A program made the translations under genes and the position numbers. Shown here one piece after another: positions 182-7,467 of a DNA stretch of 64,000 nt. The notes under the pieces were generated by a model. That model was given only the letters and a program-made list of their open reading frames with translations. It made no database searches and was not told where the DNA came from. Numbering within the stretch: position 1 is the first letter of the stretch; each line of letters begins with the position of its first letter. Source of the DNA: a virus; IMG/VR virus record IMGVR_UViG_3300008110_000009, one strand, 5' to 3'.

Positions 182-2014
182 TTAATATGTAGTCGTGCCT
201 AATGTTTTTACCCTGATTTTTATATCTTTTTGAGGAAATCTAATCTGGAATATTTGATTAGCTTTCATAAAAATCGTCATATCATTTTGTAAAATTTCTT
301 TTGTAGCTGAATCTTTGTATGACTGTGAAACCTGTGACGAAGAATATTCGCCACCGATTTTATTGAAAACTCTGACATCAATAACGTTTACAACACCTGG
401 AACATTGTTTACTTCTTTCATTAATTCACCAACAAATAGTGGGTCTCCCATTTTTCTTTTATCAATAGAAAAATACTCTGTTGTTGATGAGATTACATCT
501 CTTATAACTTCTCCTTGGTTTTGGTTTTTATCCAATAAAAGGTCAATTTCTAACCCCATATCAATGACTTCACCGCTAACAATATCAATGTAGTCATTTA
601 TCATTCTAAACTGAGAAAGATAGTTTAATATGTTTTGTTTTAGTGTATTAGAAACTACGCTCGTTAAATTACCACTCTCATCATATGACAATAGTTTAAC
701 TCTCACTTTGTTGTCTTCTTCCATAACATTAACCTTTGCTGGAGCCCCATATGTTGATGGCATAGTTTCAATCATTGATTTATAGTCATTTAGTGTGACC
801 GCTCTATTCTGTGCAGCAAAGTTATATGCAACCATGGCTCTAAGTTCTTCAACAGTTGGTTGATCAGCTCCGCCAACAGCTGGTGTTACGTTAGTTACAC
901 TTAAAGATTGTGAAACTTGACTATTTGTGTCAGAATTGGGGCCTGTAATAATAAAGTCTGAATTTTCCACATTATTGATGACACCAACCCCAATATTGCT
1001 TTCTTTACCTCCACCTATTCTGTATTTTATGAATAGTGTTGTTTCTTGTTTTGGAATTGAACCTAGTGAAAGGTTATTTAGATATGATGATAAATTTACT
1101 TTTAATTTATCAGTAATATAATTATCTAGATTATCAAGTGGATCAATATTTCCCGAACCAAATGTTAAAAAGAAATATCCTTCTGGGGTGTATTCTGTAA
1201 TAAATTTATTTTGTACTGTAACATATTCACCAGCTTTAAAATTTGGTCTGTCAGAAACACCAGTTGTACTTGGAACAAACACTTTGTCTTGAACTAGGGA
1301 TTGAACTTCGTACCATTTATTTGGATCACTTATAAACTCACTATAAGCGGGATTACCCGCAAATGTGGTTCCTTCCTTATGAATTACAGCAGAAACACCA
1401 AGTACGTTTCTTTCTGGTAAAAATATCTTTAAAAACGGTTTTTGATCTTGCTGAGTGATAACTTTTCTGAAAATCTTAGTTACACCGTTAACAACAGGTT
1501 CTCTTTTTACGATCGTATAAGAAATTAATCTGTTGTTATTATCAAAGTTTGGTAGTTTTAATCTATTCGGTTCTCCTTTACTATTAAAAGGATTTGAAAA
1601 ATCAATATCTTCAATTGTTTCAAATATTTGACCACCTCCAGAAATTTGTGCGCCAGCTCTTAAAATTCCTTCGTATCTATCATCATCTTTATCACCTCTA
1701 ACTGGTACATTGATACTAAAATCACACAAAGCCACTGAAGGTCTTAAGCCGGGTATTCTGATACCATATGTTTTTGCAATATGAAATAAAGATTGTCTTT
1801 TTTGAGCAAAATCTAACATTGTTTCTTGCCAAACTCTATCGATATGAAAGTGTAAGTTATCAGAAACCGCCGCGTTCAAATCCAGTAAAACAGAATAAAT
1901 CGACGCGTCGTTTGTATTTTGAATAATATCCGGGTAATATTCTTTGGTTAAGTTTACTAGGTCTTGTCTCAAACCAGCAAAATCCCTGTTAGTATATGCT
2001 ATCTTTTTGCTCAT
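182..2014 (-). CDS. Baseplate wedge subunit (T4 gp6 / baseplate J-like)
   Basis: N-terminal YTNRDF..LRQDL; FLTFGSG, YRIGGG, GGAD..EELR..QNRAVTLNDY motifs typical of the gp6/gpJ family; follows gp25-like gene. Confidence 0.9.
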   Translation of the reverse strand: MSKKIAYTNRDFAGLRQDLVNLTKEYYPDIIQNTNDASIYSVLLDLNAAVSDNLHFHIDRVWQETMLDFAQKRQSLFHIAKTYGIRIPGLRPSVALCDFSINVPVRGDKDDDRYEGILRAGAQISGGGQIFETIEDIDFSNPFNSKGEPNRLKLPNFDNNNRLISYTIVKREPVVNGVTKIFRKVITQQDQKPFLKIFLPERNVLGVSAVIHKEGTTFAGNPAYSEFISDPNKWYEVQSLVQDKVFVPSTTGVSDRPNFKAGEYVTVQNKFITEYTPEGYFFLTFGSGNIDPLDNLDNYITDKLKVNLSSYLNNLSLGSIPKQETTLFIKYRIGGGKESNIGVGVINNVENSDFIITGPNSDTNSQVSQSLSVTNVTPAVGGADQPTVEELRAMVAYNFAAQNRAVTLNDYKSMIETMPSTYGAPAKVNVMEEDNKVRVKLLSYDESGNLTSVVSNTLKQNILNYLSQFRMINDYIDIVSGEVIDMGLEIDLLLDKNQNQGEVIRDVISSTTEYFSIDKRKMGDPLFVGELMKEVNNVPGVVNVIDVRVFNKIGGEYSSSQVSQSYKDSATKEILQNDMTIFMKANQIFQIRFPQKDIKIRVKTLGTTTY

Positions 2015-2015
2015 A

Positions 2016-2471
2016 TTATATGTTAATAATTACAAAGTCGGAACTAGAAAAAGTTCCATTATTTGTTGTATAATCAATTCTTATTTTGGCAGTATATGGT
2101 TTAGTAGAACCGTCACCAACTCTAAATAATCTAGTATCCTCATCTTCACTAATACTTGAAGCGCCGTCTTCTGGATCTATATCAGGATTTGTAATTTTTA
2201 TTGCGTTTATCTCTAGATTTGGTATATAAATTTTAACAGTTTCTCTAATTTCATCTTCTATACTGCTGTAGGTTATACTATCATTTAAATCAAATATGAA
2301 TTCATATAACCTTGTACCGAAGTCAGGTAAAAAATATCTACTTCCTTTTCTAGTTAATAATAAATGAATAAGGTTTGCTCTAACCTCCTCATCTACATTC
2401 AATGTCATTCTAGTATAGTCACCTAACGTGCTATTTCTAAAAGGAAAATCTATACCATACTTTGTAGCCAT
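2016..2471 (-). CDS. Baseplate wedge/sheath initiator, gp25 (GPW/gp25) family
   Basis: GIDFPF, NLIHLLLTRKGSRYFLPDFGTRL motif; start re-assigned to MATKYG (ATG 2471) because the longer ORF crosses a terminator and the TATTTAT motif lies at 2476-2482. Confidence 0.9.
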   Translation of the reverse strand: MATKYGIDFPFRNSTLGDYTRMTLNVDEEVRANLIHLLLTRKGSRYFLPDFGTRLYEFIFDLNDSITYSSIEDEIRETVKIYIPNLEINAIKITNPDIDPEDGASSISEDEDTRLFRVGDGSTKPYTAKIRIDYTTNNGTFSSSDFVIINI

Positions 2472-2510
2472 ATCAATAAATATAAACAATACTAAAATGG
2501 ATATAAATAA

Positions 2511-2534
2511 AAAACCCAACCGAAGTTGGGTTTT
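2511..2534 (-). terminator. Intrinsic terminator after nrdA (potentially bidirectional)
   Basis: AAAACCCAAC-TTCG-GTTGGGTTTT on the minus strand followed by T-rich sequence. Confidence 0.85.
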
Positions 2535-2540
2535 AGTATT

Positions 2541-2630
2541 GTGACTTGATATTCGCACCCTGTATTGTCAAGTCCTGGATGCTCAAGGTACGCCTTGACG
2601 ACAGCTAAACTTTGAGGGCGCCACCCATTA
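2541..2630 (-). ncRNA. Candidate structured (pseudoknotted) RNA in the nrdA 3' UTR
   Basis: GC-rich island with four complementary segment pairs (see findings); family not recognised. Confidence 0.5.
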
Positions 2631-2632
2631 TC

Positions 2633-5068
2633 TTACGATCCACATCCTTCACATTCAAATGGTGAATCATCTGGCCTACTAGCCATCATTACAACTTCAG
2701 GCGTTTCTTCACTTATAATAGTATTTTGAGGTGTAGCGTATGCTGTTTGTTGCTTTGGTTGTACTTCAGCAACTGGCTTTACTGTTGAGGTATCTAAACC
2801 TAATCCTTTAATTGGGTCAACAGCAGATCTTGTTCTCAAATAATACATTCCGGTTTTAAGACCTAGCTTCCAACCAAACAAATGAGCCGCGAGTACTTTT
2901 GCTTTTGTTGCGTTATCGATAAATAAATTCATTGACTGTGATTGATCGATAAAAATACTTCTATTGGCCGCCATTTGTAAAATTCTCTTTTGAGACATTT
3001 CCCAAACAGTTTTATAAACTTCTTTGATTGGTGTAGGAATTTCTGGAATATTTTGAATAGATCCATTCTCAAGAATTAGTTTCTTTTTCAAATCTTCATT
3101 CCATAATCCAATATTCATTAAATCTTTAACCAAGTGTTTATTGACAACAATAAATTCTCCACCTAATGTTCTTCTTGAATAAAGATTCGTTGTAAATGGT
3201 TCAAATGCTTCGTTGTTACCTAAAATTTGTGCGGTTGATGCCGTTGGCATTGGTGCAACAAGTAATGAGTTTCTAACACCATACTTTACAACTTCTTTTC
3301 TCAAAGATTTCCAATCCCATCTTCCTGACATATCTTTATCTGTCTTACCCCACATTTCATATTGAAAAATTCCCTTTTCTATCGGTGAACCAGAAATTGA
3401 TTCATATGCCCCAACTTCTTTTGCAATATCTTTTGATGATGTTACTGCAGCAAAATAAATTGTTTCAAAAATTTCTGTTTGTAGTTTATCCGCCTCTTCA
3501 CTTTCAAAAGGTAATGACAATATACAAAATACATCTGCTAATCCTTGTACACCTAAACCAACTGGTCTATGTTTAAAGTTAGATCTTTTTGTTTCTTCTG
3601 TTGGGTAAAAATTCAAATCAATAACATTATTTAAATTCTTAACAACTTGGTAAGTGTATTCAAATAATAGCTGATGATTAAATTCACCATCTAAAATATA
3701 TTTTGGTAATGCTATTGATGCTAAGTTACAAACAGCTTGTTCAGTTGGTGAACTATATTCAATAATTTCAGTACACAAATTTGAAGATTTAATTGTACCT
3801 AAATTCTTTTGATTTGACTTATAGTTAGCAGCATCTTTGTATAACATATAAGGTGTTCCAGTTTCAATCTGTGCGGTTAATATCGCATCCATTAGTTTTC
3901 TAGCTTTGATTGTTTTTCTGGCTAAACCCTGTTGTTCATATGATTCATACAAACGAGTAAAAGCTTTATCTTCTGGTGTATCATACATGTCAGATAGCCC
4001 TGGTGCCTCATCTGGTGAAAATAAAGACCAATCACCGTCAGATTCAACACGTTGCATAAATAAGTCTGGTGTCCACATTGCTAAAAATAAATCTCTAGCT
4101 CTCATCTCTTCTTTTCCATGATTCTTTCTTAGATCAATAAACTCTAATACATCTGAATGCCATGGCTCAAGATAAATTGCAAATGAACCTTTTCTTTTAC
4201 CTCCTTGATTAATCCAACGAGCAACTTCATTGTAAGTTTTCATCATTGGTAGTAAACCATCTGACATTCCGCCGGTGCCTTTAATGTATGCCCCTTTAGC
4301 ACGAACATCATGAACATGTAAGCCAATACCACCAGCCCATTTAGAAATTTTTGCAACATCTTTGATTGTGTCAAATAATCCATCAATATCGTCACCTTTA
4401 TTTCCAATTAAGAAACAAGATGACATTTGTGGTCTGCGTGTTCCAGCATTGAATAATGTTGGTGTCGCGTGCGTATAAAAGTGTTGTGACAAATCATCAT
4501 AAATTCTTAAAGCCATCTGAACATCACCATTACAAATACCAACAGCAACCCTCATGTACATATACTGTGGTCTTTCAACGGTTCTTTCACCAATTTTTAA
4601 AAGATATGATCTTTCTAAGGTTTTGAAGCCAAAATAATCAAAATCAAAATCTCTCGTAATATTGATTGCACCATCAATAATTTCTTTATTATCCATCACG
4701 AACTCATATACATCATCTGAAATCAGTGTTGATTCCTTTCCAGTCTTTGGTTCAATAAAAGAATGTAATTCTTTAATGGCCTGAGAAAACTTCTTTGGTG
4801 TTGTCTTGTGTAAATTTGTTACAGCCAATCTCCCCGCTAATTTTGCATAATCAGGATGCGTTGTTGTCATAGATGCCGCAGTTTCTGCCGCTAGTACATC
4901 CAACTCTTTAGTTGTAATCCCATCATAAATTCCTTGCGTAACTTTTAGTGTAATAAATGTAGGATCAACATAATCCATATTAAGGTCATCACAAAGAGCA
5001 CTAATTCTTTTAGTGATCTTATCATATCTCATCTCTTCTAACGTTCCGTCTCTTTTTAGTACTTTCAT
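2633..5068 (-). CDS. nrdA: Ribonucleotide reductase class Ia alpha subunit with N-terminal ATP cone
   Basis: VLKRDG ATP cone, ATPTLFNAG, SSCFL, SNLCTEI, APMPTAST, KTGMYYLR, C-terminal CEGCGS. Confidence 0.98.
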   Translation of the reverse strand: MKVLKRDGTLEEMRYDKITKRISALCDDLNMDYVDPTFITLKVTQGIYDGITTKELDVLAAETAASMTTTHPDYAKLAGRLAVTNLHKTTPKKFSQAIKELHSFIEPKTGKESTLISDDVYEFVMDNKEIIDGAINITRDFDFDYFGFKTLERSYLLKIGERTVERPQYMYMRVAVGICNGDVQMALRIYDDLSQHFYTHATPTLFNAGTRRPQMSSCFLIGNKGDDIDGLFDTIKDVAKISKWAGGIGLHVHDVRAKGAYIKGTGGMSDGLLPMMKTYNEVARWINQGGKRKGSFAIYLEPWHSDVLEFIDLRKNHGKEEMRARDLFLAMWTPDLFMQRVESDGDWSLFSPDEAPGLSDMYDTPEDKAFTRLYESYEQQGLARKTIKARKLMDAILTAQIETGTPYMLYKDAANYKSNQKNLGTIKSSNLCTEIIEYSSPTEQAVCNLASIALPKYILDGEFNHQLLFEYTYQVVKNLNNVIDLNFYPTEETKRSNFKHRPVGLGVQGLADVFCILSLPFESEEADKLQTEIFETIYFAAVTSSKDIAKEVGAYESISGSPIEKGIFQYEMWGKTDKDMSGRWDWKSLRKEVVKYGVRNSLLVAPMPTASTAQILGNNEAFEPFTTNLYSRRTLGGEFIVVNKHLVKDLMNIGLWNEDLKKKLILENGSIQNIPEIPTPIKEVYKTVWEMSQKRILQMAANRSIFIDQSQSMNLFIDNATKAKVLAAHLFGWKLGLKTGMYYLRTRSAVDPIKGLGLDTSTVKPVAEVQPKQQTAYATPQNTIISEETPEVVMMASRPDDSPFECEGCGS

Positions 5069-5083
5069 CTCAAATTATATTTT

Positions 5084-6061
5084 TTAAAATTCTAAATCAC
5101 CAAATGCTGATTCTAGATCCTCCGCTTCCGCAGTTTTATTAACACCTGCTTTTTGATACTCAGCAACTCTCTTTTCAAAGAAATTTGTTTTCCCTTGTAG
5201 AGCAATATTTTGCATAAAATCAAATGGGTTTTCTGAATTGTAAACTTTAGGAACCCCCAAAGCAACCAATAATCTATCTGTAACAAATTCAAGATATTGA
5301 GCCATTAAATCTGAGTTCATACCAATAAGTCTAACTGGTAAGGCTTCAAGAATAAACTCTTTCTCAATTTCTAATGCGCCACAAATAATATCTTTAATTT
5401 GCTTTTGTGATAACTTGTTTTCAATATGGTGATTAAATAAGTGACATGCAAAATCGCAATGCATACCTTCATCACGAGAAATCAATTCATTAGAAAAGGT
5501 TAAACCCGGCATTAAACCTCTTTTCTTCAACCAGAAAATTGCGCAGAAAGATCCAGAGAAAAAGATACCCTCAACTGCTGCAAAAGCGATAAGTCTTTCG
5601 ACAAATGTTCCTTTTTCAATATATCTTAGTGCCCATTCAGCTTTTCTTTTAATAGCTGGAACAGTTTCGATGGCATTAAATAATTTATTTTGTTCTTCCT
5701 TATCTTTGATGTATGTGTCAATTAACAATGAATAAGTTTCACTATGAATATTTTCCATCATAATCTGAAAACCATAAAACATTTTAGCTTCAGTGTATTG
5801 AACAGCATTAACAAAATTCATTGCTATGTTCTCATTAACAATACCATCAGATGCCGCAAAAAATGCTAATACATGTTTAACAAAGTGTTGTTCGTCTGCG
5901 TTTAATTTATTTTCCCAATCATAAATGTCTTGTCCTAAATCAATCTCTTCAGCAGTCCAAAAACATGCTTCTTGCTGTTTATAAAGCTTCCATAAATCAT
6001 GGTGCTCGATTGGGAAAAGGACAAAGCGTCCGGGATTGTCAACTAGAATCTTCTCGGTCAT
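5084..6061 (-). CDS. nrdB: Ribonucleotide reductase class Ia beta subunit
   Basis: [53 protein letters not shown]. Confidence 0.98.
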
Positions 6062-6075
6062 AGTGTTTGTTTTTT

Positions 6076-7467
6076 TTACTTGTTTAATAATTCTTTTTGT
6101 GCTAAATATTCGTTGTAGATTTTGTTCTTGCGCTGCTTTGCTTCTTCTTCCTTATCGGTTTTGAAACCAAGCAAAGTATTTTGATGGTCAACATCAATTT
6201 CAAGAAACTCATTATTGAATTTGCAGTTATTGAATACAACACCATCTTTACCGATTCTGGATTTCAATAATGTTAATGTTGCAAGATTCATTTCTTTTTG
6301 TTCAATTGTTTTACCAATAGACAATACAACGTGTCCAATTTGGGCTTTTTTAATAGATCCACCCATTTGATCTGTGGTTACTACTTCACTCTTAATAGAT
6401 TCTCTATTACCTTGGGTAGCAGTCCATATTGCGATATCAAATTCAGATGTCATAGCTTCTAATTGTCTCATAATTGCACCATCTCCCTTCCACTCTTCAT
6501 TATAATTTGTCTTCTCAGGGGTGATACAATCAACATAGTCCAAAGTTAGTAAATCTACTCTAAAACCATCAGCTTGCATCTTTCTTAATTTTGATTTAAT
6601 TTCAGAAATTGTAACAGAATCACTAGGTAACTTCAGTAATCTAAGCTCGCCAGTTGATATACTTTTTCTTTCTGTTACAATTTTCTCAACCTCTTCAGCA
6701 TGTAATGGTTGTTCTTTTGGAGAAATACCGGTCCAAATGGTAAAATGTTTTCGTTTAATGTTATTAACGTTATCTTCAAAGAAAACTTGAACAACATTGT
6801 AACCCTGATTAAAGGCCTCGTTAGAGAATTTAGTCAATAAAGTTGTTTTACCTGTTCCGGTTGGGGCTAAGACTACCCCAAGTTCGCCTCTTCCCAAACC
6901 ACCATCCAATAGGTTGTCAATACCCACAACGCCTGTTGGTATTGGTCTTCTATTATCAGCTTGTAAAGCTAAGCTAATACTATCAAAGATGTCTACTACA
7001 TCATTATCACTAACACCAACTTGTAGAGCGTCTTGAATTAGTTTCTCAATTTTGTGGTACTCTTCAAATTCACCCTTAGCTGTTATCTCCTCTATTTTCT
7101 TGATGGTTTTCTTAAGAACTTGCTGCTTACAGAAGTTCATAGCTTTGTCCTTAATTAAAGGAATTCCACCCTGATCAATAACGTGGTCTTGTATATTCTT
7201 AATGGTATCAATAAAAGCAGTCCTGGCTGTGTCTGAAACGCTTTCTGATAATATTTTTTGTTCTAATGCGGTATATGAAGGTAGTGTTTCGTATTTTTCA
7301 TAACACTCCTTAATATTTTGCATAATGAACTTAAACCCATTATTGTCAAAATAGTTTTGATCTATGACCTCAACAATAGTTTCACCGAATTTTCGGTCTT
7401 CTATAATAGTTTTTAATAGTGATATTTGATACGTTTGCCCTAAATGGCCAAAATTTTTCTCGGTCAT
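6076..7467 (-). CDS. Replicative DNA helicase (DnaB / T4 gp41-like)
   Basis: IPTG..ID..L.GG, Walker [26 protein letters not shown]. Confidence 0.93.

Follow-up and report, generated by a model that had tools for sequence, protein, structure and literature searches.

A conserved pseudoknotted RNA downstream of phage nrdA is one branch of a wider, uncatalogued RNA family

Between the stop codon of a phage ribonucleotide reductase gene, nrdA, and the terminator of its transcript lies a short GC-rich stretch, and the question raised by this locus is what the stretch encodes and whether it acts on the gene that it follows. The locus was examined in 64,000 nucleotides of DNA (the window, to which coordinates refer unless a locus label is given) from the uncultured phage record IMGVR_UViG_3300008110_000009, where the element lies on the minus strand at positions 2541 to 2630. 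An earlier note on this DNA had proposed four pairings that form a pseudoknot and had suggested a small RNA derived from the 3′ untranslated region (UTR), a nuclease-blocking fold, a ribozyme, or a ligand sensor tied to dNTP supply. Comparison with relatives establishes that the stretch encodes a compact RNA, neither a protein extension nor a DNA site, and that this nrdA-linked element is one branch of a wider, uncatalogued phage RNA family, whose extension to other gene contexts and other strand connectivities is new. As to function, we tentatively favor a stable small RNA that would act by binding a specific partner and that would be made here as the tail of the nrdBA transcript.

Four helices are conserved by compensatory change

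The minus strand after the nrdA TAA reads as the earlier note gave it, with strands able to form three helices (P1, P2, and P3) and a pseudoknot helix (PK). The RNA forms two hairpins (P1, with an optional inner P2, and P3) that a 7-bp loop–loop helix locks together; in strict terms the topology is that of two hairpins with pairing loops, ABACBC, a kissing-hairpin pseudoknot. Folding of the single sequence was no better than that of shuffles (z of −0.67 for the sense strand and −1.18 for the antisense strand), so that the sequence alone proves nothing and the proof is comparative. Relatives were collected in two ways. A search of IMG/VR with the NrdA protein gave 80 loci with 84 to 98% identity, 75 of them with enough downstream DNA, among which 38 carry the full element, 9 a shortened form, and 28 none. 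A pattern for the 3′ half of the element matched 104 stretches, of which 100 were retrieved (63 distinct sequences); where these reach far enough upstream, all but one chance match begin a few bases past the nrdA stop, which is TAA in 72 of 72 relatives scored.

In a model-guided alignment of 65 distinct sequences, standard pairs make up 97.1% of pair cells, as compared to 31 to 55% when the partners are slid, nine pairs change on both sides, and the covariation score is reached by none of 500 shuffles. All four pairings thus have the support of compensatory changes among relatives, each helix containing at least one pair changed on both sides. One P1 pair alternates between U-A and A-U in 32 and 33 sequences, respectively. 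Parsimony assigns 11 double compensatory events to P1, 9 to PK, 5 to P2, and 4 to P3 (∼29 in total), on a tree built from the adjoining nrdA codons; recombination could inflate these counts. G-U pairs account for ∼8% of pair cells, which would be A-C on the opposite strand; the fold therefore belongs to the nrdA-sense strand, as had been proposed from the wobble pairs of the single sequence. Two noncanonical oppositions, each of which looks tolerated or functional, were also seen: a C opposite A is kept inside P3 in fifteen freshwater members, and a G stands opposite G in the P1 of soil phages (L317, L318, L295, L319, and others; L-numbers are labels of the loci compared) where the freshwater clade has U-A or A-U.

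Conservation is not confined to the helices. Mean pairwise identity is 0.87 in the 25 unpaired core columns and 0.84 in the paired columns, as compared to 0.52 at four-fold sites in the last 900 nt of nrdA, and selection thus extends beyond base pairing. Likewise, river metatranscriptome contigs from a relative ∼7% diverged in nrdA have no listed difference across the covered part of the element, nor anywhere below position 2663. Tandem stops and a variable frame led us to reject an extension of the coding sequence into the element; L033 has a 30-codon ORF that begins with an AUG inside P1, but this ORF is broken in the window.

The same core recurs in other gene contexts with three wirings

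Distant members were found by scanning IMG/VR with the P2 hairpin, and then by applying a junction-plus-P2 pattern to IMG/VR and metagenomes. The core that they have in common consists, in its 5′ part, of P1, the 7-bp PK, the CAAA junction, and UGUCG plus the P2 hairpin, and in its 3′ part of an A-rich lead-in to the PK 3′ strand and a GAA(A/U) tail. In an alignment of 23 diverse sequences, pairing holds in 96.1% of cells (in PK, in 98.8%), 10 pairs are changed on both sides, and CAAA is invariant. Most members contain an extra variable hairpin between CAAA and UGUCG, and the variable junction linker of the nrdA-linked branch corresponds to this hairpin (“Pa”) in other branches. The unpaired bases and P2 are almost invariant from AT-rich freshwater to GC-rich soil phages; the P2 sequence, which is nearly unchanged family-wide, is missing from several short forms.

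The core occurs in three wirings. In type A, that of the window, the local helix P3 encloses the PK 3′ strand and is built from at least 10 different complementary sequences, GC-rich soil versions included. In type B, a 5′ leader pairs with the 3′ tail, by way of seven different complementary sequences, and an extra hairpin often follows the 3′ strand of P1 (P1′). Type C, represented by L300, has neither clamp. A single copy was found in the genome of the window and in each of five other phage records.

Neighboring genes differ among family members. In L303 and L307 the RNA lies inside long tRNA arrays, on the tRNA strand; these very large arrays pack more than 20 tRNA genes, all on one strand, into ∼10 kb, and the RNA occupies a 560 to 680-nt gap that also holds small ORFs. 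In L300 the core stands behind a NAMPT gene and ends at base 3575, with a tRNA-Leu starting at 3576. In the soil phages L317 and L320 the element stands past a conserved 150-aa gene and before one for DNA polymerase A/UDG, with a C/A-rich linker and then a terminator after it. In L296 the element follows a reductase without similarity to the NrdA of the window (gene at 937–1743, minus strand; phrog_367, with a C-terminal CSGGSC) in a phage that shares the downstream baseplate genes; the reductase gene was apparently exchanged and the RNA retained.

Genomic setting, terminators, and repeated loss

The window belongs to a 121-kb record, and its nearest contigs reach 250 to 330 kb. On the minus strand the order is a DnaB-like helicase gene, nrdB, nrdA, the element, and then gp25-like and J-like baseplate genes (Table 1). 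The closest named NrdA proteins are those of Tenacibaculum and Cellulophaga phages, at ∼52% identity. The element has a GC content of 0.50 in a window of ∼32% GC. The anomaly claimed for this GC-rich spacer is thus real as a local value, and not unique, as a second peak of 0.52 is present at 6851–6950 within the DnaB-like helicase gene.

Table 1. Features of the nrdA-linked element and its neighbors in the window, in minus-strand order
Feature	Position	Strand	Evidence or remark
nrdB, small subunit	5084..6061	−	Pfam Ribonuc_red_sm 6e-113; upstream of nrdA, same orientation
nrdA, class Ia ribonucleotide reductase large subunit, 811 aa	2633..5068	−	Pfam Ribonuc_red_lgC 4e-200, plus Ribonuc_red_lgN and ATP-cone
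nrdA TAA stop codon	2633–2635	−	
AU-rich spacer, stop codon to P1	2628..2632	−	5–7 nt in 72/72 relatives scored
P1 5′ strand	2622..2627	−	Pairs with 2576–2581; 99.5% of cells paired
PK 5′ strand, directly after P1	2615..2621	−	Pairs with 2555–2561; three pairs changed on both sides
Junction: conserved CAAA(G), variable linker, conserved UGUCG	2599..2614	−	Alignments
Inner hairpin P2, 6 bp, loop CGUA	2583..2598	−	Three pairs changed on both sides within nrdA clade
P1 3′ strand	2576..2581	−	Partner of 2622–2627
P3 5′ strand	2568..2574	−	Pairs with 2543–2549; two pairs changed on both sides
A-rich linker ahead of PK 3′ strand	2562..2567	−	AAUA almost invariant
PK 3′ strand, within P3 loop	2555..2561	−	Partner of 2615–2621
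Linker GAAUA past PK 3′ strand	2550..2554	−	GAAA/GAAU in other branches; AA invariant in wide alignment; last part of the core in L300, at the tRNA 5′ end
P3 3′ strand	2543..2549	−	Partner of 2568–2574
Intrinsic terminator, stem-loop and U run, closing nrdB-nrdA transcript	2505..2534	−	Terminator scan (hairpin 2511–2534)
gp25-like baseplate wedge gene, first gene past terminator	2016..2471	−	Pfam GPW_gp25

A hairpin and U run start 4 to 18 nt (median 9) after the element in all 65 distinct combinations of element and flank. These terminators fall into two unrelated sequence families, which have been swapped while the element remained unchanged. One of the two consists of CGCGACA-like word repeats, with two to three direct copies followed by a long hairpin of the same word (L010:5497–5560, L009, L025, and other relatives), and may represent a phage-specific regulatory or protein-binding repeat. 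A repeated promoter-like motif was sought past the terminator, and no enrichment was found there.

The nrdA tree indicates an ancestral element that has since been lost in at least seven separate lineages among close nrdA relatives, some with visible remnants or clean deletions, and P2 has been trimmed at least three times in the nrdA clade. Remnants are kept in the element-less relatives L019:5422–5470, L023:3434–3480, and L076:5431–5460, either as the first P1 bases within a new small hairpin or as the linker that normally follows P3; being recognizable, they indicate loss by deletion rather than original absence. Such repeated loss and trimming imply that the element is dispensable or only conditionally useful.

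The family is absent from the catalogs searched

Rfam 15 (4227 models, among them ZTP, pistol, twister, hatchet, HDV, hammerhead, and the preQ1 and SAM pseudoknot riboswitches) gave no match at gathering threshold in the whole window. At E values up to 10, the element and five diverse members drew only terminator-driven or noise matches, and in eight other loci the gathering-level matches were exclusively tRNAs. The earlier note had not recognized the family and had set the ZTP riboswitch aside, and both statements agree with the lack of an Rfam match to the family at any threshold. Likeness to tRNA or tmRNA was rejected, as ARAGORN finds nothing. Neither the element nor a type B member has a DNA match among GenBank phages, and the phages pT24, Larrie, phiST, and LR756502, whose NrdA proteins are ∼50% identical to that of the window, are without the element. 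All 19 pattern matches in reference bacterial genomes were false by the structure model, and the element was not found in the 155 bacterial genomes searched (151 from one phylum and 4 others). The literature searched yielded no description of the family. Codons of nrdB form a P3-like hairpin (L040:354–398, L066:2877–2922, and ∼5150–5190 on the minus strand of the window), with 26 of 34 bases like P3 in L040 and a weak structure-model score of 24.8 bits; origin from, or mimicry of, the nrdB coding sequence was rejected and the resemblance taken as chance, as a sequence-only profile finds nothing.

A proposed autonomous RNA module

Occurrence of the same core in tRNA arrays, at the 5′ end of a tRNA, before a DNA polymerase gene, and after two kinds of reductase suggests an autonomous RNA module. 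Together with single-copy occurrence, an invariant core, a position from which it could be released, and interchangeable clamps, this independence of context argues for an RNA gene and against a regulator of nrdA. The module would then borrow whatever transcript it lies in. Its invariant core is held shut in one of three interchangeable ways, with P3 around the PK 3′ strand, with a helix between the 5′ and 3′ ends, or with neither. In the window, it would form the tail of the nrdB-nrdA message, which the intrinsic terminator closes 9 nt on. The RNA may persist in this form, or may be cut free in the AU-rich spacer of 5 to 7 nt, as a stable fragment of ∼130 nt, and its sequence-invariant core would bind a specific protein or a second, specific RNA. 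Comparable RNAs are the small stable ones from phage tRNA clusters, such as rnaC and rnaD of phage T4 (species 1 and 2), and 3′-UTR-derived bacterial small RNAs, which are discrete structured RNAs processed from longer transcripts (a precursor of tRNAs, or the tail of an mRNA with its terminator) and which function independently of the neighboring gene. We know of no relation in sequence or structure between the family and these RNAs.

The proposed tie to dNTP supply is weakened by the same distribution, as the core is found in tRNA arrays, abutting a tRNA, and before DNA polymerase A, and has been lost at least seven times. A sensor specific to nrdA is probably not what the element is.

Several points weigh against an autonomous small RNA. 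The data from RNA libraries are assembled contigs, which are unable to show transcript ends. Two river metatranscriptome contigs do stop at position 2545, where the flanks of related strains diverge; DNA carry-over is possible in these data, and the shared end is best explained by assembly branching at the diverging flanks. The nrdA clade includes short forms that lack P2, although elsewhere no part is more conserved; such forms may be copies in decay, or P2 may be nonessential. Members of the wide family were, moreover, found with a P2-based probe, so the invariance of P2 is partly by construction. Finally, the association with nrdA could be functional after all, given that two different reductase genes precede the element.

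Comparison with catalytic RNAs

Complex, conserved, pseudoknotted RNAs with invariant junctions have repeatedly proved to be ribozymes, riboswitches, or protein-controlling RNAs. A bolder interpretation, rather doubtful at present, would see in the family catalytic RNAs of a new class (self-cleaving or processing tRNA or mRNA), or a new high-affinity aptamer, which diverse uncultured phages would carry as a single-copy accessory gene, naturally rewired around one active core. The main rival of the small-RNA reading, and in our judgment an unlikely one, is a putative new small self-cleaving or otherwise catalytic RNA that processes its host transcripts, cutting the nrdA message just past the stop codon or trimming neighboring tRNAs in the arrays. 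Optional hairpins and alternative strand connectivity, both found in the family, are a hallmark of small ribozymes, and invariant junction bases combined with a pseudoknot are likewise consistent with catalysis. The single-copy, context-independent distribution, including tRNA arrays and a direct tRNA junction, is also that shown by hammerhead, twister, and hepatitis delta virus (HDV)-like “theta” ribozymes of phages (PMC10879173).

In abstract terms the topology equals that of pistol ribozymes for types A and B, and for types B and C it may match that of HDV-like ribozymes. Pistol (RF02679) resembles the family in its ABACBC order, in which the loop of one hairpin pairs with a strand lying inside another helix, in its G/C-rich pseudoknot of 6 to 7 bp, in its small size, and in its occurrence in phage-like DNA. 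Pistol, however, has its elements in mirrored order and other conserved bases, its model gives no match at E values up to 10, and the G-U cleavage site that it has between P3 and P2 is absent from the family, where the equivalent junction reads GAAUA or GAAA. In types B and C the strand order P1, P2 (PK), hairpin, P1′, (hairpin), P2′ would fit the nested double pseudoknot of HDV-like ribozymes (P1-P2-P3-P1′-P4-P2′), whereas in type A of the window P3 encloses the 3′ PK strand. The theta ribozymes are likewise associated with phage tRNA genes, although these ribozymes lie downstream of the tRNA and the L300 copy lies upstream (PMC10879173). The catalytic C of HDV, at the first J4/2 position, is not conserved in the family, where this base varies among C, A, and U (AC-A, AA-A, AU-A, UC-G, AC-G, and AU-G). 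The 3-bp P3 of HDV with its L3 loop is absent as well: the hairpin of the family has 6 bp and a 4-nt loop, leaving no equivalent of P3, L3, or P1.1, and is wholly deleted in short forms. Neither HDV-like nor any other ribozyme model in Rfam matches the family, at E values up to 10. Numerous complex phage RNAs of a similar kind have proved to be something other than ribozymes.

Roadblock, ligand switch, and recoding

Protection of the message from its 3′ end is a quite improbable role, in which the stable knot before the terminator would stall 3′-to-5′ (or 5′-to-3′) exonucleases and thereby prolong the life of the nrdBA message. Placement between the stop codon and the intrinsic terminator in more than 100 contigs, without exception, and likewise upstream of a terminator in the soil phages, is consistent with such a role, as are the knotted arrangement of three 6 to 7-bp helices and the dispensability of the element. 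A roadblock, however, requires pairing and not sequence, yet the unpaired bases and P2 are almost invariant from freshwater to soil phages, and for copies inside tRNA arrays or in a 5′ leader there is no 3′ end of a message to protect.

A riboswitch aptamer that senses a nucleotide or NAD-related metabolite, and that tunes termination, read-through downstream, or mRNA stability, is very improbable. Its anatomy would be aptamer-like (a pseudoknot, conserved junctions, and in type B a closing helix), the order of aptamer, terminator, and gene is found both here and before DNA polymerase A, and several neighbors (nrdA, the other reductase, the polymerase, and NAMPT) act in nucleotide or NAD metabolism. 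The ZTP riboswitch (pfl motif; RF01750) similarly uses a pseudoknot to link a 5′ subdomain to a 3′ hairpin region, but its model gives no match, its conserved bases are absent, and the family has different gene contexts and no expression platform. A terminator/antiterminator switch was rejected, as the element has no excess pairing with the arms of its own terminator and no conserved downstream complement; element and terminator are separate and do not overlap. Duplexes with the element's own terminator are equal in energy to those with the terminators of other loci (−6.0 versus −6.1 and −6.6 versus −6.6 kcal/mol), and 17 diverse members have no consistent complement within 250 nt downstream (2 of 34 tests with p < 0.05). 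Hints of such a complement in L293 and L319 are at chance level. In L293 (3955–3975), ∼40 nt past a type B member, a 9-nt perfect complement of the PK 5′ strand and junction lies within a hairpin; it stands alone among the 17 members (p ∼0.02) and does not argue for a switch. The idea that the CAAA loop pairs with the start region of nrdA was also rejected, since the UUUGAG before the AUG is limited to the nearest kin of the window. Terminators are freely exchanged, copies lie inside tRNA arrays, and the element is repeatedly lost with the gene layout kept. On account of the other contexts, the repeated loss, and the lack of any alternative pairing that involves the terminator, the option of the earlier note with the least support is a ligand switch that targets nrdA or its terminator.

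Recoding at the nrdA stop (read-through or frameshift) or put-like antitermination of the next terminator would suit the 5 to 7-nt spacing from the stop, which is that of known recoding pseudoknots, and the position directly upstream of the terminator, but recoding or antitermination is largely excluded, and stop-codon read-through in particular largely refuted, since 31 of 34 distinct members with a 6-nt spacer have a further in-frame stop no more than one codon on, the element falls into three frames according to which of three spacer lengths is present, a slippery site is absent, members elsewhere in the family are not beside stop codons, and phages that lost the element retain the same terminator and layout.

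Implications

Members of the family come from giant freshwater phages and from 70 to 90-kb soil phages, and at 60 to 150 nt they are small enough for direct testing, for which the three natural clamp wirings offer ready-made structure–function controls. The RNA keeps ∼87% identity against a background of nearly saturated neutral sites and is nonetheless discarded again and again, a combination that fits an accessory weapon or a tuning device. What appeared to be an nrdA 3′-UTR element is better seen as a mobile RNA gene, and the reading of this locus shifts from a device at the 3′ end of a reductase message to an autonomous family of phage RNAs.
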